Shown here: positions 10,220 to 62,474 of the stretch, piece after piece | How positions within the stretch are numbered: the first letter of the stretch is position 1 | Layout of the letters: each line of letters begins with the position of its first letter | Sequence record: KC801932 | Source of the DNA: Escherichia phage Lw1 | Direction: 5' to 3' (one strand) | Length of the DNA stretch: 64,000 bases | The notes under the pieces: model-generated | The model's input: the letters and a program-made list of their open reading frames with translations, nothing else | Database searches by the model: none | Told to the model about the DNA's origin: nothing | Program-made: the position numbers and the translations under genes

Positions 10220-10945
10220 ATGGTTGCAAAAATCTCTATAGAACAAAGAGAACATCAATTAAAAGAACGTTGTGCGGAATTAGAACTATCTTTTGATGGA
10301 TGGGTAGACCAATCAGCGATCACAAAATATTCAAAGTTTTATGTTGTTTGCAGTAAAGGACATAGAACAGAAAAACAGATCAAACCATTTGTCAACAAAA
10401 GTCGTCCAAACGGATGTTATTTGTGTTCCCCTAAGATGAAAATATCAAAGGAAAACAGAATCGAGGAAATCAAAACTCTTGCAGATTCAATTGGATATAC
10501 ATTCGTAGATTTCGTTGGGGTGTATAAAGATGCACACACAAAAATATCAATGGTTTGCGATAAAGGCCATAATTGGGATGTAAGTATAGTTGCTTTTCTC
10601 AATCAAGGTCATCGCTGTAAAAAATGCGCAACGTCTGGGTTCAATCCGAACAAACCAGCATACGTATACGTACAATCACTATCTGGAAAATTTCTGAAAT
10701 TTGGGATAACCAACAGAACACCAAAGAAAAGAATGTGTGCGCAATCAAATAAATCCGTTTATAAACACGAACTGGTTTATCAAAAATTATTCGATAAAGG
10801 TATTGATGCAATGAGTATTGAACAGAAGATCAAACAATCTCTTGTTTGTGGCGTAGTCGATAAATCAGATATGATGGATGGATATACAGAAACAACAGAT
10901 ATATCCAATTACGATAAACTGTTGAATATTATAGAAGGAGTATAA
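10220..10945 (+). CDS. putative endonuclease with tandem zinc-ribbon modules and a C-terminal GIY-YIG-like (T5orf172-type) domain, inserted between genes 14 and 15
   Basis: Two repeats of C-x-KGH-x(15-20)-GC-x-x-C; C-terminal AYVYVQSLSGKFLKFGITN resembles GIY-(spacer)-YIG; start chosen at in-frame ATG 10220, which is 11 nt downstream of a GAGG; the six-frame track ORF begins at 10172. Confidence 0.5.
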   Translation: MVAKISIEQREHQLKERCAELELSFDGWVDQSAITKYSKFYVVCSKGHRTEKQIKPFVNKSRPNGCYLCSPKMKISKENRIEEIKTLADSIGYTFVDFVGVYKDAHTKISMVCDKGHNWDVSIVAFLNQGHRCKKCATSGFNPNKPAYVYVQSLSGKFLKFGITNRTPKKRMCAQSNKSVYKHELVYQKLFDKGIDAMSIEQKIKQSLVCGVVDKSDMMDGYTETTDISNYDKLLNIIEGV

Positions 10946-22017: not shown

Positions 22018-22033
22018 GACTTTACACAAGAAA

Positions 22034-22058
22034 GGCAACCTACGGGTTGCCTTTTTTT
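22034..22058 (+). terminator. rho-independent terminator after gene 23
   Basis: GGCAACC-tacg-GGTTGCC followed by TTTTTTT. Confidence 0.7.
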
Positions 22059-22109
22059 ATGGTGTAAATAGATACAGGATAAAAGCCCTCTAATTCAGGA
22101 ACCAAAGAA

Positions 22110-23408
22110 ATGAGTGAAAAACATTACACAATTCACAAGTTGATGCGTCAGTCTACGCTTCCCCCTGGTAAACGCGAAAAGGTTATCAACGAAGCAACTG
22201 GAACGACCGACATCAACGTACAGAACACGCGCCCAGAACTGGTTTCTTTGACTCGCGCTGTTAACAACCTGATCTATCATGAACTGGTTGCTGTACAAGA
22301 AACAAATTTACCCGTAGCAACTCTGTTTGGTGTTCGCTATCGTAACCCTAACGGCGACATGACTTTCTCCAGCGCTGCAACCTATTCAGGCCGCATATCT
22401 GGACGTACAGACATCGACGATATCGATCTGGCTAAGGCATACGTCAAAGGCGATTTATTCAAGCACGATGTCACTGACGTTGTGTATGAGGTCATCGAAC
22501 CTGTAACGCTAAACGCGCTGGATACTGATAAAGACACCGCAATCATGAAAGCTGTGTTCCAAAGTAAAATTCGTTTGGTTAGCGAAGCCGCAGACACTTC
22601 AAAATATGAAACCAGTGAAGATATCGCATCAACCTCTTTCCAGATGGATCGCTGGAACATTCCGGTTCGTTCACGTAAGTTTAAAACTGAAATGACCGTG
22701 GAATTGATGCAGGATCTGGAAGCAAACCAGTTTGAAGCCGATGGGGTAATTGAAGATATCCTGGGTACGGTTGCAAGCGAAGAAGTCAACAAAGATATTA
22801 TTCAGACGCTGATCACCGTTTCCAAACGATATAACGTTGATGGTGTAGTTGTCGATGGTATTTTTGACGGTACAACCGCATACACTGCGAAGGATGCTCC
22901 AGCATTGGGCCGCATACTCTATCAATTAGCGTGTGAAATGGGTCAAGAAATGAATAGAACGACTTCATTTGATGCAACCTACGTCCTCGCTAGTGCTCGC
23001 GTTGTAGGCGTTCTGGCTGCGTCTGGTTGGATGACCGAAACCGACGAACAACACCCGCTGGCAACTGGTAAACTTCAAAACGGTTATTATGTCTATACCG
23101 ACACGAATACACCGTTTGATTATCTGCTTACCGGATGCAAATACGATCTGGGTGATATGGATCACGTAGGTTCTCTGTTCTTCACTCCGTACACCGAAGC
23201 GGATGAAGCAGGTTCAATCAAGGTATCCGTAGATCCTGCATCACTGCAACCGAAAGTTGCTATTCTGATGCGTTACGGTTTATCTGTGAACCCATACACA
23301 ACGGAATCCGACTCTGAACGGTTGACCAAAGGCGATGACTGGTCGAATCTGGCTGGTAAATCCAAACTCAGTCAAATCGTAGGTATTAAATTACCTAAGC
23401 TGGGTTAA
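22110..23408 (+). CDS. 24: capsid vertex protein gp24
   Basis: 432 aa; gp23 paralogue-like fold signatures (YGLSVNPYT near the C-terminus parallels gp23 YGIGINPFA); synteny. Confidence 0.85.
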   Translation: MSEKHYTIHKLMRQSTLPPGKREKVINEATGTTDINVQNTRPELVSLTRAVNNLIYHELVAVQETNLPVATLFGVRYRNPNGDMTFSSAATYSGRISGRTDIDDIDLAKAYVKGDLFKHDVTDVVYEVIEPVTLNALDTDKDTAIMKAVFQSKIRLVSEAADTSKYETSEDIASTSFQMDRWNIPVRSRKFKTEMTVELMQDLEANQFEADGVIEDILGTVASEEVNKDIIQTLITVSKRYNVDGVVVDGIFDGTTAYTAKDAPALGRILYQLACEMGQEMNRTTSFDATYVLASARVVGVLAASGWMTETDEQHPLATGKLQNGYYVYTDTNTPFDYLLTGCKYDLGDMDHVGSLFFTPYTEADEAGSIKVSVDPASLQPKVAILMRYGLSVNPYTTESDSERLTKGDDWSNLAGKSKLSQIVGIKLPKLG

Positions 23409-38938: not shown

Positions 38939-39211
38939 ATGTTTAAAATTTATGGCTATATCCCTTCCGTATACAATTGCGCTCCGTGCCTGAACTCGAA
39001 ACGACTGCTGGACGCAAAGAAACATGAATATGAATTCGTATCTGTTGCTGATTCCAAAGGCGAAGACGGCAAACCGATCCTGAATGAAAAAGTGATTGAC
39101 GAACTCGAAGGTCTTTTGGGTACTCGCAAAATGACCATGCCTCAGATTTTCCACGATGGGAAACACATTGGCGGGTTCGACCAACTTCGTGAGTATGTCC
39201 GCACCCTGTGA
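38939..39211 (+). CDS. nrdC: glutaredoxin/thioredoxin NrdC
   Basis: 90 aa; MFK.YGY...C.YC..AKRLL and TMPQ.F..G.HIGGFDQLREY match recalled T4 NrdC. Confidence 0.8.
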   Translation: MFKIYGYIPSVYNCAPCLNSKRLLDAKKHEYEFVSVADSKGEDGKPILNEKVIDELEGLLGTRKMTMPQIFHDGKHIGGFDQLREYVRTL

Positions 39212-39243
39212 TAAATAATGACACCTTACTGAATGGTGTTATT

Positions 39244-39726
39244 ATGCTGACGAAACGAATTACCAAAAAAGATTACCCAACAATCAAGCAAGCTCTCTTT
39301 GACAAACAAGGGGGCTGCTGTGCTCTCTGTAAACGTCCTCTTGAGGGTGATATAGAGAAACATCACCTTGACCATGACCATGCTTTAGACGGCGAAAACG
39401 CCGGACGTGTGCGCGGGCTTCTGTGTAACCTATGCAACGGTACAGAAGGTATTGTAAAGCACAAATTCAATCGATCCGGTCTGGTTTCCCGTGATGTTTA
39501 TTACATCGCCTGGTTAGAGAATCTGCTTGCATATCTCAAGCAAGACTATTCCGAAAACCGTATTCATGACAAATTCATACCAGATAAGGTAAAATGGTTT
39601 TCAAGACTTACCAAACCTGATATGATTGCCGAAATGGTTTCTATGGGCTTCGAGTACGCCGACAAAGACGAACGCAAAGCCTTAACCGCAAAATATAGAA
39701 AGCAATTAATGAAGGCAACCAAATGA
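39244..39726 (+). CDS. 49: recombination endonuclease VII (gp49)
   Basis: 160 aa from ATG 39244; HLDHDH.L.G..AG.VRGLLCNLCN..EG..KHKFNRSGL and WLENLL.YLK.DY matches recalled T4 gp49; the track ORF starts at GTG 39208. Confidence 0.82.
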   Translation: MLTKRITKKDYPTIKQALFDKQGGCCALCKRPLEGDIEKHHLDHDHALDGENAGRVRGLLCNLCNGTEGIVKHKFNRSGLVSRDVYYIAWLENLLAYLKQDYSENRIHDKFIPDKVKWFSRLTKPDMIAEMVSMGFEYADKDERKALTAKYRKQLMKATK

Positions 39727-41923: not shown

Positions 41924-42406
41924 ATGATGTACTGGACAAAAGATTATTTTGAATTTCGTGATGAAGAAAGTTTTGGGACGGTGTACCGCAACTTAGCTTT
42001 GCGTGGTAGTCCTCTGTCGCCTAATCAACTATCATCTGTCGTGTTTCCAATCAAGGTAACGCACTGTGATCGGAAAGGTGTCAATGGGATCGTTGATGCC
42101 AATGGCACAACCTGGTATTCCGAAGATTCATATCTGTTTGACAACGAGGATCGCGGATTCTTTAAAAAGTTTGTCGCGCTTAAACCTGCTGTTGAAAAAG
42201 CAGACGCACAACAACTGCTGGACTGTTCGCATCTTCTGGGACGAATCTACGTAGATGGTAAACTGGTGACGAAACCTGGTGATCTGGAAAAATTCTTGCG
42301 TAAGGCGCGGGAAACTACCCTGAAAGACACCGAAAAACGACACGTCACAGCAACCGCCGATCTACAGCGTTTATCTGGTGAACTGAAAGTTCTGTGGGGT
42401 GAATGA
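41924..42406 (+). CDS. hypothetical protein
   Basis: 160 aa; TGAGGT 8 nt upstream of the ATG; first gene of the nrdD-nrdG insertion. Confidence 0.5.
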   Translation: MMYWTKDYFEFRDEESFGTVYRNLALRGSPLSPNQLSSVVFPIKVTHCDRKGVNGIVDANGTTWYSEDSYLFDNEDRGFFKKFVALKPAVEKADAQQLLDCSHLLGRIYVDGKLVTKPGDLEKFLRKARETTLKDTEKRHVTATADLQRLSGELKVLWGE

Positions 42407-42906
42407 TGTTCGAGAAAATCCTTGATACTCTGTTTCCCTCCCGTGTACGCGCACGGGTAGAGCGAGAAAACCGACTCGAAGAAATCCGTTTTAACAAGTT
42501 CCTTGAGGACAAGAAGAAGCGCGAAGACGAGAAACACCCAAACGCGGTAATGGCTGAGGGTGTATCGAAATGTTCTGTCGGGCGGTTCTGGGTTGAAAAG
42601 GATTATCTTGATCTGATAGGTGCAATTGCACCTGGTGTTACGCTGGAGGACTTATCCCGTGCAACAGGACGTTCGTATACAGGATGTATAAATCGTCTCC
42701 GTATGTTGTCTATAGTGGTGCGTGGTGCGCATTTTGGCTATCGTGACGTTATCCTTCCGGTGATCCCAGTAAGCAGATTAAAAATTCACCTTGCAAACGG
42801 AAAAAGAATTGACTTAACCGAAGAACTATGTAGAATAGGCTATATCAGAGAGGGGAAATTCGTGAAAGCCCCTGAATGGTTCATCAAACAATTTGAAATC
42901 AAATAA
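42403..42906 (+). CDS. hypothetical protein
   Basis: 167 aa; start overlaps the preceding stop. Confidence 0.5.
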   Translation: MMFEKILDTLFPSRVRARVERENRLEEIRFNKFLEDKKKREDEKHPNAVMAEGVSKCSVGRFWVEKDYLDLIGAIAPGVTLEDLSRATGRSYTGCINRLRMLSIVVRGAHFGYRDVILPVIPVSRLKIHLANGKRIDLTEELCRIGYIREGKFVKAPEWFIKQFEIK

Positions 42907-42915
42907 GGTAATATT

Positions 42916-43512
42916 ATGTTTAAGAAACTGATGTCTTTCATTAACAATAAAGCAGAAACCGCCATCGAAAAGAACACTTCCCCAGAAGACGCATGGCGTA
43001 GTGCTGGACGTATTCTGATCAAAGAGATCGACCGTCTGCGACATACTCGCATTACCGCTGCACACGAAATCAAGAAGCTGGAGAAGAAGGTCGCGGAACA
43101 TAAAGCGCACCATGAGAACAAAGAAGCAGAAATCAAAAAACTGCTGGCGGCTAATCAGGAAGTTTCGAACAGCCATTACATCCTGGCGCTGCAACATCGC
43201 AATATCTGGCAAGGGTTGCAGGACAAGATTGAAGATCTTCGCAGCATGAATGTTCAGATCGACCTTTCGGTTGTCGAACTGGATAAGAAAATGGCTGAGG
43301 TTAAAATCAACCTTGACATTATCGAACTGAACAAAGAAACCGAAAACATGGGCCTGACAATACCGGAAGATGTGATCGCCAGCGTGGGACATACCACTGT
43401 GAACGTCGATACAATCGTAACGAAAATTGATGTGTTGCTGGGTGGCAAGAACGCCGCTTCCGTAACCTCTGCCGATGTCAGCGCGTATATCGATGCCCTA
43501 AAAGCAAACTAA
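42916..43512 (+). CDS. PspA/IM30-like coiled-coil protein (putative)
   Basis: 198 aa, heptad-rich; N-terminal 45 aa (MFKKLMSFINNKAETAIEKNTSPEDAWRSAGRILIKEIDRLR) align in pattern with E. coli PspA N-terminus ([44 protein letters not shown]). Confidence 0.45.
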   Translation: MFKKLMSFINNKAETAIEKNTSPEDAWRSAGRILIKEIDRLRHTRITAAHEIKKLEKKVAEHKAHHENKEAEIKKLLAANQEVSNSHYILALQHRNIWQGLQDKIEDLRSMNVQIDLSVVELDKKMAEVKINLDIIELNKETENMGLTIPEDVIASVGHTTVNVDTIVTKIDVLLGGKNAASVTSADVSAYIDALKAN

Positions 43513-43517
43513 GAGGA

Positions 43518-43538
43518 AGGGGCGAAAGCCCCTTTTTT
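43518..43538 (+). terminator. rho-independent terminator
   Basis: AGGGGC-gaaa-GCCCCT followed by TTTTTT. Confidence 0.75.
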
Positions 43539-43542
43539 CATT

Positions 43543-44430
43543 ATGTATAGTATTGAGAAAGATTATGGCGGTGGTTGCTGGGTAGTAGATCATGTTACTC
43601 TTGTAAAAGAAAAACTTCCTGATAACTGGGAATTTTTATCTACATCCACGAAAAATCGTATTGCTGATACTGTTTACCGTACAGCAATGGAACGACATAA
43701 AAATGATATTCATCGACGAAAAGCACAGATGTTGAAATCTCGTAATATCGATGTTAGTCATTTGGATATAATAGGAACTCAACCGATGACGCTTTCAAGC
43801 ATCACCAACGCTTACGTGAATGGCGAAACCCGCGAGGAAGAAAAAATGATGTGGGAACCTGGATTATCAGAACCGGATAATGGATATAAAAAGCAAATGC
43901 AATCTCTTGATTTTAATGAGAAAATCAATAATTTGCTTAATTATTGCGCATCGAGCGTTTCGTCGTGGGAATATCATGGCCCGATTGATATAGCAGGTTT
44001 TACTGCTCGTGGTGTTGAGGTTTTTAACTTCGAAAAACTGATGAATGGTATCATGTCTTCTGACTATATCGTTTCTGTGAATGTCCCTGTTGTTGCGACA
44101 TCCCGTTTTTCATCTCCTTGTAACGTTGTTACGGATAAACTTAATATTGTTGCTGTCGATAATAGCGATGTTAATATTAGCGATGGTGATAGAATCGGAA
44201 GCATCCTGGTTGCCCTAGAACTGACTTGCGAAGACGGCTATACTTGTAGTATGTTTGTTGTTTCTTGTGTTGATGATGCCGTGAACTCAGTGTTTACTAA
44301 TTTCAGCAAGAAATTAAATGCTCTGCATATTGAAAAATTTATACACAAATGTAAAAAGAACGTGATGGGGAATTATGATCCGTCATTAACATACACGAAA
44401 ATTGATGAAAACATGGTGGACTTATGCTGA
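43543..44430 (+). CDS. hypothetical protein
   Basis: 295 aa ORF; no recognised family. Confidence 0.5.
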   Translation: MYSIEKDYGGGCWVVDHVTLVKEKLPDNWEFLSTSTKNRIADTVYRTAMERHKNDIHRRKAQMLKSRNIDVSHLDIIGTQPMTLSSITNAYVNGETREEEKMMWEPGLSEPDNGYKKQMQSLDFNEKINNLLNYCASSVSSWEYHGPIDIAGFTARGVEVFNFEKLMNGIMSSDYIVSVNVPVVATSRFSSPCNVVTDKLNIVAVDNSDVNISDGDRIGSILVALELTCEDGYTCSMFVVSCVDDAVNSVFTNFSKKLNALHIEKFIHKCKKNVMGNYDPSLTYTKIDENMVDLC

Positions 44431-49369: not shown

Positions 49370-52300
49370 ATGGTAGCTAAATCATTCCGCGCCACAAGTG
49401 GCCTTGATGCTGCTGGCGAAAAGGTTATCAACGTTGGTAAAGCATCCCGCTCTGTGTTGAGCGACGGCGTGAACGTTGACTTTTTTAACGAATTTAACAC
49501 CGTGCAACAGTATGATCCCGATCGCGGATATTCTGCATACATGGCGATCATCTATGCGCGTCGTATTTGGTATGCTCGTGCTGATATTGCATCACCTGCT
49601 GGGGCATTCGATGAAACAAAATGGATCTCAACTCGTAACGATCCAAAATGGGTTTATAATAACGTAACCAGTGTTGACGGTCTTCCCGTTGAATCTGGCA
49701 CATACTTAATGGCTGATGGACGTTTTTCTGAACTGACCTATGTTCTGCCTGATTCCCCTGTAGAGGGTGATATTGTCACGATTAAAGATGGTGGCGGTAT
49801 GGTTGGTGTCAACAGTATGTTGGTACGTTCCAACACTCGTCAGATCCGTCTTCGTGATGCTCAGTCAAGTTCTTATCGACTGACTCACCCATATATGACC
49901 GTTGCGTTTATTTTTAACGGTAACTTATGGCGCGTTTCTGAAATGCGTGATAACAGGGATTCCCAGTTTGTTAACGCAACTGGTGCGGGTTCTTTCCAGA
50001 TGCAGTCCGGTATGGTTACGTTCCGTAATAGCGGTACTGGTAAAATCACTCTGCAATTGCCGAAATATGCAAACGATGGTGACTCAATCACAACCTATGA
50101 CCTGGATAAACTCAGTTCTGTAAACGTTGCGACTTTGCAGGTTTACCCGAACAGCGGACATACTATTACGTATGATAGCATTAACGGCGTAACCTCTGTT
50201 GCTTCACAGCGTTCCGGTTATGGTATATTCATCTTTGACCAGACTAACAACCGCTGGGTTGTCTATGATGGTGATAACCGCGTTCGTCTGCGTCGTATCA
50301 GTGACGACCTGAACATGCTCCCGAATGATTATGTTTTCGTTACTCCTATTGCTGGGAACCCCCCTACAGTACGTAACGTAACATTAACCCTCCCGCAAGA
50401 TGTTGCAGAAGGGGATCGCGTGTACATCAGTATGTACATGATGGGTAAAACGCAGAACTGTACGATCAAAGTTAAAGATGGTTCTGGTGAAACGATCCGT
50501 ACCAACAAAAACATGATGCAGTTCCCACAGCGTAAAGATTATCCACCTGATGACTGGTTCAGTGTAACTACGCTTTCGTTTAACGCTGATACTGACTATC
50601 TTCCGTATATGGAATTGTCTTATCTGAAAGCAACGAAAGAATGGGTTGTTGCACAATATCGACCACTGGTTGAACGTGTCGATCCGACTAACCGTTCTCG
50701 TCTGGGTGTTATCGCTCTGGCTACTCAAGCAGAAGTGAACAAGAACCATGAAGATACACCGTCCGATGAACTGGCAGTAACCCCGCGCACACTGGCGAAT
50801 AAAACTGCTACTGAAACGCGTCGTGGTATTGCTCGCCTGGCGACAACTGCGGAAGTAAACCAGAACACTACGGCTACTTTTTTGGATGACGTAATCGTAA
50901 CGCCTAAAAAGCTGAACGAACGTACAGCAACAGAAGATCGTCGCGGTATACTGGAAATTGCAACTCAGGCAGAAACAAACGCTGGTACTGATGACAATAC
51001 CGCAATCACGCCTAAAAAGCTCGATGCGCGTCGTGCGTCCGAAACTTTAGCAGGTATCGGTAAACTCGTCACAACAGGCGATACGACTGCTGAGGGGGCT
51101 TTACGTGGGGATGCTGGCACTAACGTCTATAACTTCAATAACGGTGTTGATCTGATCACTCCGAAATCGTTGAACGAAAAGACGGCAACCGAGAAATCAA
51201 AAGGTTTGGTTGTTCTCGCGACTGAAAACGAAGTGGTTACGGGTGCTGCTGCGGGATCTGCTTCAATGCCGATCGTAGTTACTCCTGAAATGCTGCATCG
51301 TAAAACGTCTACTGAGGCGCGGATCGGTTTGATTGAGATCGCTACCCAAACAGAAACAAACGCGGGTACTGATGATTTACGTGCGGTTACTCCTAAGAAA
51401 CTGAACGATCGTAAAGCGACGGAAACCCTTGACGGCATTATTGCACTGGCAACCACTGCGGAAGTTGCGGCAGGGACAGTAACCAATAAGGCAGTTGTTC
51501 CGGTTAAACTGAAAGAGTTCTTCGACGTTACGAGTCATGTTGCTGTTGCGACTGTTGACGGCTTGACTCAATCAGGTACTATCTGGACAACGGTTAATCT
51601 GGGGATCGCGGCTGCTACTGAAACTCAACGTGGTACTTTACGCGTTGCAACTCAGGCAGAAACAAACGCGGGTACTCTTGATACTGTTATCATCACTGCG
51701 AAGAAACTGCAAGCGAAAAAAGCAACTGACACAGCAGAAGGTATCATTCGTTGTGCAACTAACAGCGAAGCGGCTGCGGGTACTTCAACGACTCTTGCAA
51801 TCACTCCGGCTACCATGCAATATCTGAATGGTAACGATCCGGCGTGGGGTGCAACCACTGTTCGTCGTGGTGCTGTGTTTATCACGACTAAATCGAATAC
51901 GTTTATCGGTGATAATCTGGTCGGTTCTACACAGCCAGTGGATAACTATCTGGAAGATTTCTACGCTGTATCGCCTCGCGGTTTGAACTATGCTTTGCAG
52001 AACTTCTTACCTTTGAATGCGACAGCACAGAATAGCCTGAAACTGGGTGGCGTTGTTGCTGCAAGCTGGATGCGTCGTGATGCTGATCAAACCGTAACGG
52101 GCAACAACACGTTCAACGGTACGAGTAACTTTGTGGGTAACGTAACCACTAACGGAACTCTGACGGCTAACGCGGCGGTGACTGTAAACAATACCGTAAC
52201 GACGAACAACAACATTAACCAGTCTGCGAAAGCAAACACTGTTTATGCAAATACGGTTCTGAGTTCTGCGGCTGCTGGTACTAAAAACCTGCTTCGTACT

Positions 52301-53029
52301 TTCCGTGGTGGTACAACGGATACAACGTGGCATGAAACGGTACAAGCAAGTGCATATCGCCTGGCGACTGGTACAACGGATACTGTTGATGTTCTGACGG
52401 TTGGTGATACCACAAACGGTGTTCTGGCTTACTACGGTAACACGTTGCGCCTGAACAGCAAAGCACTGGCGAATATTAACGCAAACGGTGATGTTGCTAT
52501 TGCAAGTGACGCAAGTCCTTCGATACAATTACGAACCGCTGCAACAAACGGCTGGAACGGGGTTGTTATCAGTAACGACAACGGAACTACCACAGCGACG
52601 GTGATCAACACTCGCAACTTTACCCAACACCTTGACAGTACCTATGTCAACGTAACGGGTGACACGATGACTGGCACACTGTCAGTTAACGTTAGCGGTA
52701 CGGGTGGACGCTTTACCAGTGTAAGCGGTACAGCACATATTCAGGCAGGTGATTTCGCTGGGGCAACTCAGAAAATGCGTCTGACTGGTATCAATGACCA
52801 GGTATTGACTGAATTTAACATCAATATCACCGATTACAATAAAGCGATGATCAACGGCAACCTGATCTATCATGCAGGTCGTAAGCCTACTCCGGCAGAA
52901 ATCGGGGCGGTTGCGGTTGCAGGTTCGACGGTTGATACGCTGGTTGTTCGTGACTACATCAAGATCGGAAACGTGAAAATCTACGCAAATCCAGTCACTA
53001 AGACTTGTGAATTTGAGTGGGAGGAATAA
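49370..53029 (+). CDS. 34: long tail fibre proximal subunit gp34
   Basis: 1219 aa; N-terminus FRATSGLDAAGEKVINV...GVNVDF...NTVQQYDPDRGY...KPAGAFDETKW matches recalled T4 gp34; many repeats of the fibre motif A-T-Q/T-A-E-x-N-A-G-T-DD-x-x-A-x-TPKKL. Confidence 0.88.
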   Translation: MVAKSFRATSGLDAAGEKVINVGKASRSVLSDGVNVDFFNEFNTVQQYDPDRGYSAYMAIIYARRIWYARADIASPAGAFDETKWISTRNDPKWVYNNVTSVDGLPVESGTYLMADGRFSELTYVLPDSPVEGDIVTIKDGGGMVGVNSMLVRSNTRQIRLRDAQSSSYRLTHPYMTVAFIFNGNLWRVSEMRDNRDSQFVNATGAGSFQMQSGMVTFRNSGTGKITLQLPKYANDGDSITTYDLDKLSSVNVATLQVYPNSGHTITYDSINGVTSVASQRSGYGIFIFDQTNNRWVVYDGDNRVRLRRISDDLNMLPNDYVFVTPIAGNPPTVRNVTLTLPQDVAEGDRVYISMYMMGKTQNCTIKVKDGSGETIRTNKNMMQFPQRKDYPPDDWFSVTTLSFNADTDYLPYMELSYLKATKEWVVAQYRPLVERVDPTNRSRLGVIALATQAEVNKNHEDTPSDELAVTPRTLANKTATETRRGIARLATTAEVNQNTTATFLDDVIVTPKKLNERTATEDRRGILEIATQAETNAGTDDNTAITPKKLDARRASETLAGIGKLVTTGDTTAEGALRGDAGTNVYNFNNGVDLITPKSLNEKTATEKSKGLVVLATENEVVTGAAAGSASMPIVVTPEMLHRKTSTEARIGLIEIATQTETNAGTDDLRAVTPKKLNDRKATETLDGIIALATTAEVAAGTVTNKAVVPVKLKEFFDVTSHVAVATVDGLTQSGTIWTTVNLGIAAATETQRGTLRVATQAETNAGTLDTVIITAKKLQAKKATDTAEGIIRCATNSEAAAGTSTTLAITPATMQYLNGNDPAWGATTVRRGAVFITTKSNTFIGDNLVGSTQPVDNYLEDFYAVSPRGLNYALQNFLPLNATAQNSLKLGGVVAASWMRRDADQTVTGNNTFNGTSNFVGNVTTNGTLTANAAVTVNNTVTTNNNINQSAKANTVYANTVLSSAAAGTKNLLRTFRGGTTDTTWHETVQASAYRLATGTTDTVDVLTVGDTTNGVLAYYGNTLRLNSKALANINANGDVAIASDASPSIQLRTAATNGWNGVVISNDNGTTTATVINTRNFTQHLDSTYVNVTGDTMTGTLSVNVSGTGGRFTSVSGTAHIQAGDFAGATQKMRLTGINDQVLTEFNINITDYNKAMINGNLIYHAGRKPTPAEIGAVAVAGSTVDTLVVRDYIKIGNVKIYANPVTKTCEFEWEE

Positions 53030-53034
53030 TTTAA

Positions 53035-54615
53035 ATGGCGAATAACGAATTCATGGCGTTATTCGGCCCTGATAGTTTCACGGCGAATGTGTTTTCAGAA
53101 GCAAACGCCGTGAAATATCGGCTTGTTGTGCGTGGGGCTAATTTAAGCTCTACGCTCAACACGGTCGAGGTTTCTATTAACGGGGCTGATATTATCAACC
53201 GAAACACACAACGCGATCGCGGAATTAACCTAGCTATTATTGACGGAACAACTTTAGCATTATTGGATCACAAGACATTTGATATGTACGGCGATCCTGC
53301 TACGAACGGGAATGCACTTAGGGATTATCTGGATTCTCTTCCCGCGAATAGAATTGTGTGTTTTTATACCTACGACGCAATAGGCGGTGATGCTAACTTT
53401 ACTACAATCATGCGTAAGTTGGGATCTGTTGCATGGCCCGAAGCAAGATATTTTTCAAATGACGATCGTCGTCGTTCATCATATTCTGCGATCTATTCAT
53501 CAACCATGAAGAAAATCTGTATGGAAAACTTTGTGGGTGGTGCTGGTTCTGCTTCAAAGGATGACACCAGAAGTTTTGTTGAAGTCGTATTTGACGAATT
53601 CAGCGATATAGGCGTGACGGGTATTCCTGAACGTATGGTTGATGACGTAAACACATATCAAAACAGTGGTACAATGTACGGATATCATGCGTATGGTTTA
53701 TGGAATGTTGGAACCGATGTATTCCGTGGGGATATATTCAAAGTTACAGCAGACGTTTACTGTTCGCAAGAACTCCGAGATGCTGGCGGTGATACATATC
53801 TTTATATCTGGACTGAAACGACTGGTTCGCAATGGGTAACGTCTTCACTGATCCGAACTTTGGGTCTTGCTGCTGATACATGGCATTCGTTGTCTATGTA
53901 TTTCACGATCCCACAGGGAACAGAAAACGCTAAGATGGGATGTCAGGTTTATCACTATCCGTCAACTGTTAGCGTTGGTTTGTCTCAGTGTCGTAATGTT
54001 CAGATCTCAAAAGTACCACGCGAAGAAGTAAATCGTAATGGCGCTGCAATTGGTGTGAACGGTGTACGTATGCAGACGCTTTCCGAAGTCGATGATGCTG
54101 GAACCGAAAACCCGATTGAACAGTTGCTTTCATTGCCTGTATCACCTGCTGGAACACCGAGCAATAAAACGATTGTTTCACATAACTTCGCAGAACTCGA
54201 TTATCTTGTTTCTGATCCGGTTGAATACACGTCAACGGATACAACGAAATACTTGGTTAAAGAGTGGGCGAATAAACAGTATGATTCTGCTACCGTTTCT
54301 CTAAGCAGTGTGGGGGCTAAACCTGGCGATACAATGAGAATTGCTATCCAGGCCAAACGCGATGCAACGGCGATTTCTAACGATAAACGTTCGTTGGTTA
54401 CTGCACAATTCCTTGATGCTAACGGTCAGTATCTGTCAACTGATATACGCATTCAAGATGTAAGCACTATTCCGAACGTGTATACATTCTACAAGATGGA
54501 AGGTGTTATTCCTGATAATGCTGTTACATTTAACTTCGGGTTTTATCGTTATCCGAATAATACACGAACAGGATCTGTGTCTGTTAAAGACGTTAAACTG
54601 TCTATCGTTCGTTAA
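53035..54615 (+). CDS. 35: long tail fibre hinge protein gp35
   Basis: 526 aa; N-terminus MANNEFMALFG....FSEANAVKYRL and NRIV motif align with recalled T4 gp35 N-terminus; larger than T4 gp35. Confidence 0.72.
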   Translation: MANNEFMALFGPDSFTANVFSEANAVKYRLVVRGANLSSTLNTVEVSINGADIINRNTQRDRGINLAIIDGTTLALLDHKTFDMYGDPATNGNALRDYLDSLPANRIVCFYTYDAIGGDANFTTIMRKLGSVAWPEARYFSNDDRRRSSYSAIYSSTMKKICMENFVGGAGSASKDDTRSFVEVVFDEFSDIGVTGIPERMVDDVNTYQNSGTMYGYHAYGLWNVGTDVFRGDIFKVTADVYCSQELRDAGGDTYLYIWTETTGSQWVTSSLIRTLGLAADTWHSLSMYFTIPQGTENAKMGCQVYHYPSTVSVGLSQCRNVQISKVPREEVNRNGAAIGVNGVRMQTLSEVDDAGTENPIEQLLSLPVSPAGTPSNKTIVSHNFAELDYLVSDPVEYTSTDTTKYLVKEWANKQYDSATVSLSSVGAKPGDTMRIAIQAKRDATAISNDKRSLVTAQFLDANGQYLSTDIRIQDVSTIPNVYTFYKMEGVIPDNAVTFNFGFYRYPNNTRTGSVSVKDVKLSIVR

Positions 54616-54634
54616 GGGGCTTTGGCCCCTTTTT
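54614..54634 (+). terminator. rho-independent terminator after gene 35
   Basis: AAGGGGC-tttg-GCCCCTT followed by TTTTC. Confidence 0.7.
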
Positions 54635-54718
54635 CATAAATACAGTCATTATAGGAGAATTTTATGGCTGATTTGAAATGGGGGCGCTGGTATCTGGAGT
54701 GCGTCAAACCTTCCGTTA

Positions 54719-56965
54719 ATGCCGTCCGGTGGACAAATAACGTATAAAGGCTGGCGTATCTATACCGAAAATGATCGCCCGACAGCGGAAGATATAGGCG
54801 CATTATCACTTGCTAATGGTGGTACTGTAAACAATGATACAACATTCAATAAAGACGTAACCGTAGGCGTTAACGCTGTTGTAGGGGCGTTGTTTTCAAG
54901 ATCGTATATTGATATTACTCGATCAGGAACTGAACCAAACATTGTATTTCGTCGCTCAGACGTTACTACTACGCCAACAACAGAACAAGCCCTTTTAATA
55001 ATTAACGCTATGAATGGGGCTAATCTTACTGCTGGTACGTTTAATATTCATGCGCGACCTGATGGTGGAAACAAGGTTTATATTACTGCGTATAAATCAG
55101 GATCGCAAAATACCTCATTGACTCTTGATTCACAGACACAATCGGTAACGGTAGAACAAGGTACTTTCCGTGTGCAAGGAAATACTGTTCTTGCTGGTAC
55201 TACGGCAACCAGTATGGCTGTATCTGGTGCGTTGACTGCGAATACCGTTACTCCGACGAACTGGTCAAATCATGACGTTCGTTATATGACGGGTATTCCT
55301 AACAACATAACAGGAACAAGCCTGGGTGCTGCTGAGGTAACTGAAAAGAACGATGTCCTGTCTGTATCAGGTAATATTGTTGATGGGCCTTACGGGAATA
55401 CCACGTATAACGGTCAGGTGTTGAACTATCGCCGTACTTCAAACGCTGGTAATGCTCTTACTCAGTTTTATCTGGATAATGGTGTATTCCATGTTCGTAG
55501 CGGTTCTGGTTCCCCCGGTGCGTGGTCGTGGATTGGTGGTAATGCTAACGGATGGCGCAAGGTTTACGACGAAAATAATAAGCCCACTCCGGCAGAAATC
55601 GGGGCGTTGAAAAACACAACCGATACGTTGAACGGTTCGTTAACTATCAATAGTGGTTCTTCGTTTGCTGGACTTTCTATAAGAAGTACCGCTGGACAAA
55701 GTGAATATCAGTTTGGAACAGCAACAAACACTGGTCATATCGGTATCGGAACAGTAGATCTGTATATTGGAAACCTTACCTCTGGTAAGTATATCCAAAT
55801 GTCGCATAACGGGGCTTTGACTTATTCAGGCGCGAAGATTTATCGTTCTGATGATAAACCAACTCCGAAAGAAATTGGCGCACCGACAACAGAAACTGCG
55901 TATATTAGTAATAACGATTCTATATGGGTTAAAATTGGCACTGCTACCGTAGTGCAATCAGCATCAACAATGAGCATCCGTATTACTGGTGGTTCCGGTT
56001 ATAATGCAGAACCTTCACAAGCACAATATGCGGATATTATCATTCGTAGCAACAACGGGGAATCGAAATCAATCGGCATTTCTATGTTCCGTACTGGTGC
56101 TTCTGCTCCTGGACAAGTTGGTTGGATTTATACAGGGACAGGGGATGATTATGACATCTATGTAGCTGTTGGCCCGTATCAACAAGGTGTTATGTTAACG
56201 TGGGATGGGACAGCACCAACTAAGTTTGTGCATAACATTGTTCCTGGAACAGGAACACAACCTGCTGGACTTACTCTGGGTATCACAAGCACATTGTTAA
56301 ACAGTGTGGATAGAGCAGTAACCAGTAGTGCTGTATTGAACGGTAAAACAACGCTTGCTGGCTATCTTCAATTGGATGGTACTGAGAGCACTATTCGAGG
56401 GATATACGGCGATGTCATTTTAAGGGATCATAATAATGGTAACGTGTCAGTTTCTGCTTCTCGTATAAATGGTACTCCTGGTACTCTTTATGTAGGTTAT
56501 CATAACCCAGGCATTGGTATATATTGTGCGGGTATTCGATTAGAAACTCCTACATTTGCCGCGAGTACGCTAACATGTAATGCTACATTATCATGTAACA
56601 GCAATATAACCGCTACTGGTGAAATTTATACAGCGAACAACGGCAACTTTAACGATGTGTATATTCGTTCCGATGAAAAACTGAAAAGTAATTTCAAAAA
56701 GATTGAAAACGCGTTGGATAAAGTTGATTTGATTGATGGTTTAACTTACGATAAAGCAAGTTATATCGGGGGCGAAACTGTTAATCGCGAAGCGGGTTTG
56801 ATTGCACAGCAACTACAGAAAGTATTACCGGAAGCTGTTGCGGTCAGTCGTGATGCAAAAGATAACGAAGTATTGGTGATCTCGCCTACGGCTACAATCG
56901 CTTTGCTGGTTAATGCGATCAAGGAACTGCGTGAAGAAGTAAGGGAACTCAAATCCCGAATTTAA
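54719..56965 (+). CDS. distal tail fibre protein A (gp36/gp37-like) with C-terminal intramolecular chaperone (peptidase S74-type) domain; 5' end apparently frameshifted
   Basis: 748-aa track ORF; the conserved fibre N-terminus MADLK is encoded from ATG 54664 (GGAG 8 nt upstream) in the -1 frame and joins this frame across a G5 run at 54680-54684; C-terminus YIRSDEKLKSNFKKIENAL...EAGLIAQQLQKVLPEAV matches the self-cleaving chaperone domain of endosialidase/T5 pb1-type fibres. Confidence 0.7.
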   Translation: MPSGGQITYKGWRIYTENDRPTAEDIGALSLANGGTVNNDTTFNKDVTVGVNAVVGALFSRSYIDITRSGTEPNIVFRRSDVTTTPTTEQALLIINAMNGANLTAGTFNIHARPDGGNKVYITAYKSGSQNTSLTLDSQTQSVTVEQGTFRVQGNTVLAGTTATSMAVSGALTANTVTPTNWSNHDVRYMTGIPNNITGTSLGAAEVTEKNDVLSVSGNIVDGPYGNTTYNGQVLNYRRTSNAGNALTQFYLDNGVFHVRSGSGSPGAWSWIGGNANGWRKVYDENNKPTPAEIGALKNTTDTLNGSLTINSGSSFAGLSIRSTAGQSEYQFGTATNTGHIGIGTVDLYIGNLTSGKYIQMSHNGALTYSGAKIYRSDDKPTPKEIGAPTTETAYISNNDSIWVKIGTATVVQSASTMSIRITGGSGYNAEPSQAQYADIIIRSNNGESKSIGISMFRTGASAPGQVGWIYTGTGDDYDIYVAVGPYQQGVMLTWDGTAPTKFVHNIVPGTGTQPAGLTLGITSTLLNSVDRAVTSSAVLNGKTTLAGYLQLDGTESTIRGIYGDVILRDHNNGNVSVSASRINGTPGTLYVGYHNPGIGIYCAGIRLETPTFAASTLTCNATLSCNSNITATGEIYTANNGNFNDVYIRSDEKLKSNFKKIENALDKVDLIDGLTYDKASYIGGETVNREAGLIAQQLQKVLPEAVAVSRDAKDNEVLVISPTATIALLVNAIKELREEVRELKSRI

Positions 56966-56969
56966 GAAA

Positions 56970-56990
56970 AGCCCTACGGGGCTTTTTCTT
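56970..56990 (+). terminator. rho-independent terminator
   Basis: AGCCC-tacg-GGGCT followed by TTTTTC. Confidence 0.7.
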
Positions 56991-56992
56991 TT

Positions 56993-57000
56993 TATAAATA
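56993..57000 (+). promoter_or_regulatory. T4-type late promoter core TATAAATA upstream of the second distal fibre gene
   Basis: Exact TATAAATA, 27 nt upstream of ATG 57027. Confidence 0.55.
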
Positions 57001-57026: not shown

Positions 57027-59495
57027 ATGGCAGATTTAAAAACGGGTACTACCATAGGCGGTAATACTATCTGGAGTCAGGCGAATTTACCCTTACTCAC
57101 TAACGGAAACACATTAACGTATAAAGGCTTTAAAGTCTATACTGAAAACGACAAACCAACGAAAGCCGAAATCGGTCTGGGTAACGTAACAAACGATGCA
57201 CAGGTTAAAAAGTCCGGCGATGAAATGACAGGAGATTTGACGTTAAAGAATAACTCGCAACTTACCGTCCCTCGCTGTATTAACCTGGTATCAGACACAA
57301 CCAATTTAGCCCCTTGGTTATTAACGACTCGTTCAGATAATAACGCGGTTACAGATCCGTTTCCATCACAGCATACACGTACATTTACGTTGTTCATCAA
57401 TACGAAGTCAAATACTTCTGATCCTGGTGGTGGCGCAAACCTTGCTGCTCTATTATCACATCAGGCAACTACTGGGGCTGGTTCTATCGAACTGCAAGCA
57501 TACGATGCACCAAACAAGACAACTGGCGCTACGGGCATTCTACGCGCTCAGATTGGGCTTAATGGTTGGGATGGTTCAATTAACCTTGCCGGTGCTTCGT
57601 TAAACGTTGGAATGACAACGACAATTAACTCTAATTTATACGCGAATGAACTCATTTCGAAAGGGGCAGGAAACCGTAACGTAACTATGCAAGACACAAA
57701 CGGCAACGAACTAGCTATGCTGTTTGCAGATACGGGTAAGAACCTGTATGTTCGTACTGGTGGTTCATATGTATCTCGTTTCGCTGCTGATGGCACTCTT
57801 ATTCTGGCTAACGGCTTGACTGTTCCGCGTCAGGTATTTGTTAACGGTGCTTCACTTCCAGTGAACAATGGTCAAGTTCGACTTGATACAAGCGCTGATG
57901 GAAACGCTGTTGGTGACGGTGCAACGCATCTTGGTATGAAATTAGAAGATGGGAAATATTATCATTATTTCCGTGGTGCTGGTGTGATGTACATTGACAT
58001 GAAAGGTGGAATATCTTCTTCAACCCCGTTGTATATGAATGGAGTTGATCAAGCAATACCTAAAGTTGAAATGCTATCTACTGGTGCTGCTGGTGCTAAA
58101 AACTTTTTGCGGCGGTTTCGTGGTGGTCTTCCTGATATTATATGGCATGAAACTGTTCAGGGTGGTGATTACCGATTAGCAATAGGGGATACCGATGCGG
58201 ATTATCAGTTAAGAATTAGTGCTGATGGTGCTAATAGAGGTGGTTATGTATTTGGTGGTACGTTTACGGCTGATCGCGGTAATGATGGATTCAAGATCCG
58301 TTATAAACCTGATACTGAATCAGCAATGTTCCAGATCTGGAACAGGGATACATCAGTATTGAACTCTTATTTCGGATACGGGTCAAGTAATCAGGCAACA
58401 GTTAACCTGTATAACCGTTTAGGTGATATTGGCGTTTCTACTCCAAACGCGGCGTTCCGTCTGGATAATACTACGTTAACTCTTGGTAACTCTTCATCTG
58501 CGGAAGCCAGTCAACGTGCGTTTACTATCAGGAACTGGGGAAACAACTCGGCGGGTGGATACCGTGCTGCTGTACTTGAAGTTGGTGACGGCACAAGTTA
58601 TCACTTTTATAGCCAACGCCGTTCTGATAACTTAGTCGAAATTGCATTTGTTGGCGATGCTTATGTCAATGGGACTACATTTCTACAGAATAACGCGCGT
58701 GTTCGTGGCAGTGACGGTATTTCTATCGAAGCGGATACAAACTGTCATGTGTGGTTTAGAACCGCTGGCGGTGCGGAAAAAGCAGTATTATATGCAGAGA
58801 ATAACGGCAGCGTAAAACTTCGTACATCAAACCAGCAATATTCTCTTACGATCGCTGACGGCATGATCCTCGCTACTGGACAACAGACAACTGGAGACAC
58901 TAGAGGGTTAATCCGTGGTGCTGTTACTGGTGGTGCGTTTGTCGCATGGCGCGATCGTCCTGCTGGTTTGCTGCTGGATTGTCCTGATTCACGAAATCTA
59001 GCATACGCTATTTGGAAAGCTACTCATTGGGGTGAACAACATATCGCATCAATGGATGTCCATGCGGGTGGCGGCAATCCAGTGGTAATTATGCACGTTG
59101 GTGGCGGTGAATTTACCTTTAACAACGTTGGTTACTTTAGCACTAACGGCGCTATGTATGCAGGTGGAAACGGCGATTTTAACGATGTCTATATTCGTTC
59201 TGATATCAGACTGAAATCTAACCTGGTTGAACTGAAAGATGCACTGAGTAAAGTTGAACAGCTTAAAGGTTATATCTATGATAAGAAACAGAAAATCGAA
59301 GATGAAGAACCACAGCATCGTGAAGCGGGTATTATTGCTCAGGATCTTCAAAAGGTTTTACCGGAAGCAGTAAGAGAAAACGAAGAAACCGGAATGTTGA
59401 CGATCTCCCCGTCAAGTGTTAACGCGCTTCTGATTACGGCAATCAATGAATTGCGTGAACGTCTGGAAGCAATCGAACGGAAAATAGGGGCGTAA
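57027..59495 (+). CDS. distal tail fibre protein B (gp36/gp37-like) with C-terminal intramolecular chaperone (peptidase S74-type) domain
   Basis: 822 aa; N-terminus MADLKTGTTIGGNTIWSQANLPL...TYKGFKVYTENDKPT parallels T4 gp36 N-terminus (MADLKVGSTTGGSVIW...YKSFKIYSEYNKP); internal FRGG...WHETVQ joint motif shared with gp34; C-terminus YIRSDIRLKSNL...EAGIIAQDLQKVLPEAV. Confidence 0.8.
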   Translation: MADLKTGTTIGGNTIWSQANLPLLTNGNTLTYKGFKVYTENDKPTKAEIGLGNVTNDAQVKKSGDEMTGDLTLKNNSQLTVPRCINLVSDTTNLAPWLLTTRSDNNAVTDPFPSQHTRTFTLFINTKSNTSDPGGGANLAALLSHQATTGAGSIELQAYDAPNKTTGATGILRAQIGLNGWDGSINLAGASLNVGMTTTINSNLYANELISKGAGNRNVTMQDTNGNELAMLFADTGKNLYVRTGGSYVSRFAADGTLILANGLTVPRQVFVNGASLPVNNGQVRLDTSADGNAVGDGATHLGMKLEDGKYYHYFRGAGVMYIDMKGGISSSTPLYMNGVDQAIPKVEMLSTGAAGAKNFLRRFRGGLPDIIWHETVQGGDYRLAIGDTDADYQLRISADGANRGGYVFGGTFTADRGNDGFKIRYKPDTESAMFQIWNRDTSVLNSYFGYGSSNQATVNLYNRLGDIGVSTPNAAFRLDNTTLTLGNSSSAEASQRAFTIRNWGNNSAGGYRAAVLEVGDGTSYHFYSQRRSDNLVEIAFVGDAYVNGTTFLQNNARVRGSDGISIEADTNCHVWFRTAGGAEKAVLYAENNGSVKLRTSNQQYSLTIADGMILATGQQTTGDTRGLIRGAVTGGAFVAWRDRPAGLLLDCPDSRNLAYAIWKATHWGEQHIASMDVHAGGGNPVVIMHVGGGEFTFNNVGYFSTNGAMYAGGNGDFNDVYIRSDIRLKSNLVELKDALSKVEQLKGYIYDKKQKIEDEEPQHREAGIIAQDLQKVLPEAVRENEETGMLTISPSSVNALLITAINELRERLEAIERKIGA

Positions 59496-59520: not shown

Positions 59521-60045
59521 ATGGCAATTGTTGGAGTACCCGGATGGATCGGGTCGTCTGCGGTAGCAGAAACAGGACAGCGTTGGATGTCTGCGGCTGG
59601 TAGTGCTGTTCGTATTGGTGCGCCATTATGGATGTCGCAAATGGCAAACCAATCAGTATATAACATTTCCATTCCGATTTTTGAACGTTATTATAATGGT
59701 ATTCGTTATCGTGGGTGTTGGGGGACGGGTTGGAACTTCCCATATTCTAAACCTGGTTGGAACGCTACTCCTGGTGGTAGTTTTAACGGGCTGGCTTACG
59801 GGACTTGTGTTGCAGTGCAAAAACATCTCGATGGCGAATATAGCGTATTAACTATTCAAAACGGTCCTGCTGCAAACTTCCGACTCACTACTGATGACGG
59901 CGCGGTGTTCAACTTCGTTGATACCGGACGATATGACGCTGGTTATAGAAACTACAAAATCGATCCGACTCAACATTTTGTATGGTTCGAATATCTTAAC
60001 GCTCGTGTAGGACAAACAAGGCAAGGATTGGTAGCTATAAGATAA
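59521..60045 (+). CDS. 38: gp38-like protein (N-terminal fibre-tip attachment domain only)
   Basis: 174 aa; N-terminus MAIVGVPGWIGSSAVAETGQRWMS closely matches the recalled N-terminus of T2-type gp38 adhesins (MAVVGVPGWIGSSAVNETGQRWMS); lacks the long glycine-rich receptor-binding segment. Confidence 0.6.
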   Translation: MAIVGVPGWIGSSAVAETGQRWMSAAGSAVRIGAPLWMSQMANQSVYNISIPIFERYYNGIRYRGCWGTGWNFPYSKPGWNATPGGSFNGLAYGTCVAVQKHLDGEYSVLTIQNGPAANFRLTTDDGAVFNFVDTGRYDAGYRNYKIDPTQHFVWFEYLNARVGQTRQGLVAIR

Positions 60046-62145: not shown

Positions 62146-62307
62146 TTACAGGAAGAAACCTGTTCGAACCACTAAATCAATTGGTTTCATCGGGAAGAAA
62201 GGGGAACTTCCATCGATCCCGCATTTATCAAAAATGCCTACAAGCTCATGAGGAATACCGGATTCACGCGCCCATTCCAGATTGTCATCTGTACGCGGCC
62301 CCAACAT
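62146..62307 (-). CDS. small hypothetical protein (53 aa)
   Basis: ATG at 62307; below the track cutoff; immediately downstream of ORF 62322-62474 in another frame. Confidence 0.3.
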   Translation of the reverse strand: MLGPRTDDNLEWARESGIPHELVGIFDKCGIDGSSPFFPMKPIDLVVRTGFFL

Positions 62308-62321
62308 CAGGTTTATTGTGT

Positions 62322-62474
62322 CTACCGCTTTATCTTGTTCTGGGTATTATTACCCCCATTTACGTAGTGACCGTGTGCGGTTTTCAGAATTTCGACCATG
62401 TCGTCGGTTGCTTCAACCAGAAAAAGTCTGGTATTTTCTGGGATTTCCTCAAATATAATCAAAGCGGTTTTCAT
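62322..62474 (-). CDS. small hypothetical protein (50 aa)
   Basis: ATG at 62474 with AAAGG upstream; shorter version of track ORF 62322-62561. Confidence 0.3.
   Translation of the reverse strand: MKTALIIFEEIPENTRLFLVEATDDMVEILKTAHGHYVNGGNNTQNKIKR

Follow-up and report, generated by a model that had tools for sequence, protein, structure and literature searches.

The 64,000-nucleotide stretch of Escherichia phage Lw1 analyzed here (sequence record KC801932; hereafter, the window) contains a distal tail-fibre gene that begins as its relatives do and stops after 27 codons, while the greater part of its coding sequence lies open in another frame. This raises the question of whether the gene is broken, incorrectly recorded, or expressed by an unusual mechanism. 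A previous sequence-only reading placed the fault within a run of five G residues, and proposed a homopolymer sequencing error, a genuine inactivating or phase-variable indel, or a site of +1 ribosomal or transcriptional slippage.

The distal fibre locus and its reading frames

The window derives from a Pseudotevenvirus of the RB16/RB43/Miller group, with approximately 95% identity to RB16 in the capsid region and approximately 84% identity to RB43 and Miller in the fibre region. Lw1 has been described as a member of the RB43 group that lacks AP2 homing endonucleases, and two RB16 homing-endonuclease genes were found to have no counterpart in the window. Phages of this group code for two alternative distal half-fibres, each with a gp36-like adaptor (MADLK-x-GTT-x-GG-xx-IW...) at its N-terminus that would make the joint with the gp35 knee. 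The order of genes at the locus is gp34, gp35, fibre gene 1, fibre gene 2, the gp38 adhesin (these five on the + strand), and holin, and the placement of fibre gene 1 between gp35 and fibre 2/gp38 is syntenic with RB43, Miller, RB16, and the ERR11042283 contig. The gene for gp34, the proximal half-fibre (49370–53029; 1219 amino acids), is intact, being matched by RB16 gp34 over its full length in a single frame with 92% identity (tblastn). Also intact, and matched by full-length RB16 gp35, is the gene for gp35 (53035–54615, with its stop codon at 54613–54615; 526 amino acids), the knee-cap or hinge protein on which the distal half-fibre docks; the Pfam ILEI domain that it carries has been described for T4 gp35 too (cryo-EM preprint). 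The architecture of the T4 fibre is (gp34)3-gp35-(gp36)3-(gp37)3, in which the gp35 knee-cap joins the distal rod, (gp36)3-(gp37)3, to (gp34)3.

Downstream of fibre gene 1 lie a second distal half-fibre gene, the orthologue of RB43 '36-37.2'/gp37 (57027–59495; 822 amino acids; RB16 gp37 over its full length with 84% identity; PF13884), and a gene for a gp38-type adhesin (59521–60045; 174 amino acids; 94% identity to RB16 gp38; Pfam Gp38_N), both of them intact. Fibre gene 2 encodes an N-terminal adaptor and a C-terminal chaperone of the same kinds as those of fibre gene 1. The two products of the window have in common their first 62 or so residues (47% identity) and their last 120 or so (the Peptidase_S74 intramolecular chaperone; 48% identity) and only these ends, their middles being unrelated. 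The corresponding genes of RB43 were deposited as '36-37.1' and '36-37.2', and the function of this 36-37 duplication was called unclear (Trojet et al., 2011). The Lw1 preprint does not mention fibres, and neither a paper on RB49-like phages nor an atlas of Klebsiella RBPs gives specific information on dual distal fibres.

Each of the two distal fibre genes is preceded by its own hairpin, late-promoter-like box, and Shine-Dalgarno (SD) sequence. Directly 3′ of the gp35 stop codon is a terminator-like hairpin (GGGGC-TTTG-GCCCC followed by TTTTT; 54616–54634), which is kept in relatives and corresponds in position to an annotated terminator of phage Miller. The box CATAAATA (54635–54642), situated 22 nt 5′ of ATG 54664 and kept in all relatives, differs at one position from the T4-type late-promoter box TATAAATA. 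Perfect copies of TATAAATA are enriched in the window (nine found against 2.7 expected), and several of these stand directly 5′ of late genes, including those for gp34 and fibre 2; the copy that precedes fibre gene 2 (56993–57000) follows a second terminator-like hairpin, 3′ of fibre gene 1 (56966–56987). Counts in the window revealed no enrichment of CATAAATA itself, and for this reason we only infer that the box at 54635–54642 acts as a promoter.

The reading frames are as the sequence-only reading had described them. The SD sequence AGGAG (54653–54657), which has an RBS annotated at the orthologous position in Miller, precedes ATG 54664 with a spacer of 6 nt, and the frame that opens there with the authentic fibre start, MADLK, continues into out-of-frame residues and ends at TAA 54745–54747, forming a 27-codon ORF (54664–54747) that translates as MADLKWGRWYLECVKPSVNAVRWTNNV. 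The body of the gene, an orthologue of RB43 '36-37.1', occupies the +1 frame, which is closed upstream by TGA 54674–54676 and then open to 56965. The first start codon in this frame, ATG 54719, opens a stretch of 748 codons (54719–56965) and has no usable SD sequence, since the nearest GGAG (54696–54699) is 19 nt away. The run GGGGG is present at 54680–54684, and removal of one G does join the frames, giving MADLKWGAGIWSASNLPLMPSGG... Over its full length, the 748-residue product has 84, 79, and 68% identity to proteins P0001, P0002, and P0003, respectively. Its residues 651–707 (approximately 56669–56839) match the Peptidase_S74 chaperone (PF13884, E = 1.2e-13), and a sequence search of the PDB with fibre 1 returned a sole match, to the C-terminal chaperone region of S16 gp37 (6F45); its gp36-like N-terminus found no match among solved structures.

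The adaptor and the missing 14 nucleotides

A search of 5.8 billion proteins provided 90 homologues of fibre 1, 85 of which begin M[AS]DLK. In every one of these 85, the adaptor motif M[AS]DLK-x-GTT-x-GG-xx-[IV]W is whole, with residues M1, D3, L4, K5, G7, T9, G12, and W16 invariant and K5 separated from W16 by exactly 10 residues, whereas in the window it is interrupted; fibre gene 1 is thus a disrupted member of the RB43-type 36-37.1 distal half-fibre family. The first 73 or so residues of the adaptor have 45% identity to P0087, a protein bearing PF03903 (E = 2e-17), and a Pfam search with the intact orthologue P0010 returned no family at E ≤ 0.01, the PF03903 (Phage_T4_gp36) HMM included. 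The protein obtained on trimming the G run, with MADLKWGAGIW at its N-terminus, had been said to align with its paralogue, fibre 2, and with T4 gp36. Its alignments with the paralogue and with the orthologues require a gap of five residues inside a motif of invariant length; residues 6–10 are missing from it, G7, T8, and T9 included, and this form was found in none of the 85 homologues.

Alignments of the DNA located the fault elsewhere. At the junction 54679/54680, between AAAT and the G run, every relative has 14 nt that the window lacks, and the same 14-nt gap was seen against all 16 related sequences compared. The missing stretch is TAGG[C/T]ACAACGCTT or, equivalently, TTAGG..GCT, as a T leaves the placement of the junction ambiguous by 1 nt. 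Intact relatives, represented by five independent contigs, read AAAT-TAGG(C/T)ACAACGCTT-GGGGGCGCTG at this place or, more fully, ATGGCTGATTTGAAAT-TAGG(C/T)ACAACGCTT-GGGGGCGCTG(G/C)TATCTGG, which encodes K-L-G-T-T-L-G-G-A-(G/A)-I-W. These contigs come from five samples, and their products are four different proteins, all full-length: P0010, P0002, P0003, and P0004. The first kilobase of fibre gene 1 has approximately 82–85% nucleotide identity to RB43 '36-37.1' and its annotated orthologues. The 54 nt 3′ of the junction are identical to those of the P0010 and P0003 contigs, and the leader upstream of it to that of the P0010 contig. The window thus has the haplotype of its closest relatives minus exactly 14 nt, a loss that takes out codons 6–10 (LGTTL) and shifts the frame.

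It follows that the run at 54680–54684 is not the lesion. All five intact contigs carry G5 as well, so that it is the native Gly11-Gly12 (GGG GGC) at its native length, and comparison of its length with these five, a check of the kind that had been proposed, returned no difference. The apparent extra G is an arithmetical coincidence, because any change of −1 within 54677–54744 restores the frame. Runs of this kind are present elsewhere in the window, which has 19 of G5 and two of G6. A deletion combined with a T-to-G change, as suggested by the GGT GG(C/T) of the RB43/Miller clade, was also considered and is ruled out by the G5 of the closest relatives.

With microhomology at the junction limited to 1 nt, no obvious mutational mechanism is visible. 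No flanking direct repeat able to yield a 14-nt loss was found at the junction, and misaligned recombination with the paralogue was rejected in view of 5′ DNA that is too different. Exact searches for the 20-mer spanning the junction, ATGGCTGATTTGAAATGGGG, returned no match in viral contigs and none in metagenome contigs; its single match in genome contigs was to a Bacteroidota scaffold, where approximately one chance match is expected in 596 Gb.

Mutation, record, or recoding

Of the explanations offered by the sequence-only reading, that of an inactivating indel came closest, although it misidentified the lesion. The most likely interpretation is an ordinary recent inactivating deletion, with an artefact less likely. 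Such an artefact of assembly or consensus, in which the phage DNA would possess the 14 nt and an intact gene and the gap would exist in the deposited sequence only, is considered improbable. It would accord with the provenance of the record, as Lw1 was 454-sequenced and Newbler-assembled, and look-ups of exact products provided no independent confirmation: no exact copies of the 748-residue product, gp35, fibre 2, or gp38 are on record, and complete E. coli assemblies gave no match. Moreover, the window has one further frame break, in a homopolymer, and other records of the same fibre gene contain evident errors, the RB43 reference having four 1-nt indels and zero substitutions relative to RB43-GVA and RB43-TLS, and IME-CF2 having 1-nt losses in short A/T runs; it is by reason of its own 1-nt indel that the RB43 reference is annotated from an internal start. 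These errors, however, are all of 1 nt, and pyrosequencing and Sanger reads are not known to drop 14 nt cleanly from DNA that is neither repetitive nor homopolymeric. The remainder of the window also argues for a sound record. When 74 RB16 CDSs were compared with it, four had no counterpart (RB16p215, p243, p246, and a 20-codon ORF that was left out of the comparison), and 68 of the other 70 were matched at full length in one frame. The sole frame break besides that of fibre gene 1 is of the homopolymer type, CCC against CCCC (+ strand, 62342–62344) in the homologue of the 109-residue hypothetical protein RB16p265. The 454 chemistry would make this C3/C4 break suspect and leave the 14-nt gap unexplained. 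Indirect evidence thus favours a real deletion over an artefact. A compromise between the two, in which a real in-frame deletion of 15 nt, producing MADLKWGAGIW..., was compounded by an overcall of G4 as G5, is very unlikely. It draws on the restoration of the frame when one G is removed, on the second frame break of the window in a short run of C, and on the 454 chemistry, but two independent events would have to recreate exactly the ancestral G5 of the five intact relatives, and an adaptor shorter by five residues, without the invariant G7 and T9, occurs in none of the 85 homologues. Lacking these residues, the resulting protein would probably be defective anyway.

Explanations that leave the gene functional fare no better. 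Programmed +1 frameshifting, transcriptional slippage, or reversible indels in G5, by which the fibre would be restored or toggled, have in their favour the sole point that a +1 shift anywhere within 54677–54744 would join the frames, and they are hardly credible. The orthologues are all continuous single-frame ORFs, such that the break is not conserved, and G5 is constant among the five intact relatives. A run of 5 nt is shorter than the tracts known to slip (about 7 or more). In the 0 frame the run is read AAA UGG GGG CGC, where CGC is not a stop, hungry, or rare codon; no prfB-like motif (shifty codon, stop, and SD stimulator) was found around it, and the predicted mRNA fold of a 143-nt segment was no better than that of shuffled sequences (z = +1.0). 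A shift at the terminal GUA-UAA was rejected, given that it offers no +1 re-pairing, as was a bypass of the gene-60 type, for which motif, structure, and conservation are all absent. Recoding and phase variation are thus effectively refuted, and two of the three original proposals (homopolymer error or phase variation, and slippage) find no support. A further alternative, that fibre gene 1 still functions from ATG 54719 by reinitiation or direct initiation, is highly improbable. The 748-codon ORF is completely open, and from ATG 54719 it is 26 nt downstream to the stop codon TAA 54745–54747, a distance within the range of reinitiation; according to the scanning model of Adhin and van Duin, bacterial ribosomes can reportedly reinitiate near a stop codon in the absence of an SD sequence. 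An open ORF, however, is equally expected of a very recent lesion, and this start codon has no SD sequence. Whereas the use of an internal Met as the start by homologues had been named as an outcome that would count against a frameshift, all 85 start with MADLK or MSDLK; six of them have Met24 and none uses it as the start. The product from ATG 54719 would also be deprived of 23 residues that include the eight invariant positions of the adaptor.

Consequences for the fibre and comparison with known systems

Given these observations, it is likely that the first distal fibre gene of Lw1 has lost 14 bp to become a very recent functional pseudogene, and that the phage relies on fibre 2 and gp38. 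The recency of the event is indicated by the 2.2-kb body, which is still fully open, and by flanks identical to those of intact relatives. The strong SD sequence and ATG 54664 now direct initiation to a 27-residue peptide, and reinitiation at ATG 54719 would furnish at most very small amounts of a fibre 1 cut short at its N-terminus. Missing the 23 most conserved N-terminal residues, the restart product would probably be unable to dock on gp35, because it lacks the gp36-like adaptor that fibre 1 has in common with fibre 2. Adsorption would then proceed via the intact fibre 2 together with the gp38 adhesin.

The fibre-1 gene has 229 matching records across the genus, and a gene this common can be taken to be under selection in nature, so that only on a permissive host would its loss be tolerated. 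The recency of the event would fit a loss that arose while the phage was being grown on such a host in a laboratory or in industry. On a host recognized only through fibre 2/gp38, loss of fibre 1 may be neutral or may even give an advantage, since the useful fibre would then sit at each of the six knees. That the deletion was in fact selected, the filling of all six knees with fibre 2/gp38 having improved growth on a host devoid of the fibre-1 receptor, is a tentative and rather doubtful proposal. An E. coli B-type production strain is one example of such a host, and the two distal half-fibres would be rivals for one and the same gp35 knee. Were the proposal true, this naturally occurring knockout would show that the 36-37 duplication provides two interchangeable, individually dispensable receptor-binding modules.

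For annotation, the record of fibre gene 1 should state that a 14-bp deletion disrupts it; trimming a G to "correct" the gene should be avoided, and so should naming Met 54719 as its native start. If the deletion is real, Lw1 offers a ready-made fibre-1 knockout with which the role of the distal-fibre duplication in the RB43 group could be probed, and the lesion may account in part for the isolate's host range or attenuation. No new mechanism is revealed by the fibre-1 deletion.

The closest known system is the gene encoding 'gp 36-37.1' of RB43 (AAP04368.1, AY266307), with which fibre gene 1 shares its locus, hairpin, CATAAATA box, SD sequence, MADLK start, and Peptidase_S74 domain, and whose orthologues in RB16, Miller, CfP1, GuL6, and Xman are annotated as gp36 or 'long tail fiber protein distal subunit'. 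Compared with these orthologues, the copy in the window is out of frame, 14 nt having been lost behind codon 5, and its centre, presumably the receptor-binding part, has a full-length match in three metagenomic proteins only. The adaptor resembles T4 gp36 in its inferred role, at that end of the distal rod which meets gp35, but T4 gp36 is a separate protein of 221 amino acids, whereas the adaptor encoded in the window forms one chain with a long gp37-like shaft and its self-cleaving chaperone. In the RB43 reference (AY967407/NC_007023) and in IME-CF2 (NC_029013), the same gene is likewise split or internally started near its 5′ end; their breaks, however, are 1-nt indels typical of read errors, in contrast to the one clean 14-nt loss in the window. 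With prfB-type +1 frameshifting and phase-variable genes, the resemblance is one of geometry only, a short 0-frame ORF, a long +1 ORF, and a G run; in the window there is no arrangement of shifty codon, stop, and SD sequence, the break is not conserved, and the run is short and constant.

Frame breaks in related fibre genes and in a second gene of the window

Disrupted copies of the first distal half-fibre gene (fibre gene 1) are also found in the records of relatives. In the RB43 reference (NC_007023, 6214-8486), gene 36-37.1 differs from its counterparts in RB43-GVA and RB43-TLS by four single-nucleotide indels and no substitutions; one of these indels lies at about codon 21, and hence, gene 36 of this record is annotated from an internal start. 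The four indels are probably sequencing errors. With IME-CF2 (NC_029013, 6208-8479), the counterpart of fibre gene 1 is annotated as three separate coding sequences, and alignment revealed the loss of single nucleotides in one short A-run and one short T-run, which are likely to be read errors.

A second frame break of the window was found in the homolog of RB16p265 (62149-62474, minus strand), a gene of the relative RB16 encoding a hypothetical protein of 109 amino acids. Its reading is divided over two frames because a run of C residues (62342-62344) is CCC in the window and CCCC in both RB16 and the related ERR11042283 contig; the open reading frame beginning at ATG 62474 ends at a TAG approximately 50 codons on. 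Being of the homopolymer type, this break could reflect either an error in the reads or a genuine mutation.

The central part and upstream box of fibre gene 1

A search of 5.8 billion proteins identified only three full-length matches to fibre 1, P0001-P0003, each of which derives from a metagenome or SRA assembly, while the remaining homologs match only the N-terminal 330 or so residues and the C-terminal chaperone. Given this distribution, the central part (55650-56600), presumed to bind the receptor, is a rare variant.

The T4 late-promoter consensus, TATAAATA, is enriched threefold in the window (9 observed, 2.7 expected), with plus-strand copies at 15493, 16142, 16655, 18939, 19589, 28275, 49332, and 56993. 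Several of the copies immediately precede late genes, those for gp19, gp20, gp21, gp22, hoc, gp34, and fibre 2. Upstream of fibre gene 1, its place is taken by CATAAATA (54635-54642), a one-mismatch version conserved in all relatives; fibre 1 may accordingly be expressed less strongly or in a different manner.

RB16 genes and the knee-cap protein

The window lacks counterparts of two homing-endonuclease genes of RB16, RB16p215 (lying between g23 and g24) and RB16p243 (preceding nrdD), and of the small ORF p246; the respective sites are at ~22020-22110, ~39210-39720, and ~42400-44420, the last comprising approximately 2 kb where RB16 has p246 only. An endonuclease-like gene with a CapR-homology domain (10220-10942) is retained at 99% identity. 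The knee-cap protein gp35 (53035-54615) carries a Pfam ILEI/PANDER-like domain at residues 62-132, in agreement with the ILEI/PANDER-like domain lately described by cryo-EM in the knee-cap protein of T4.
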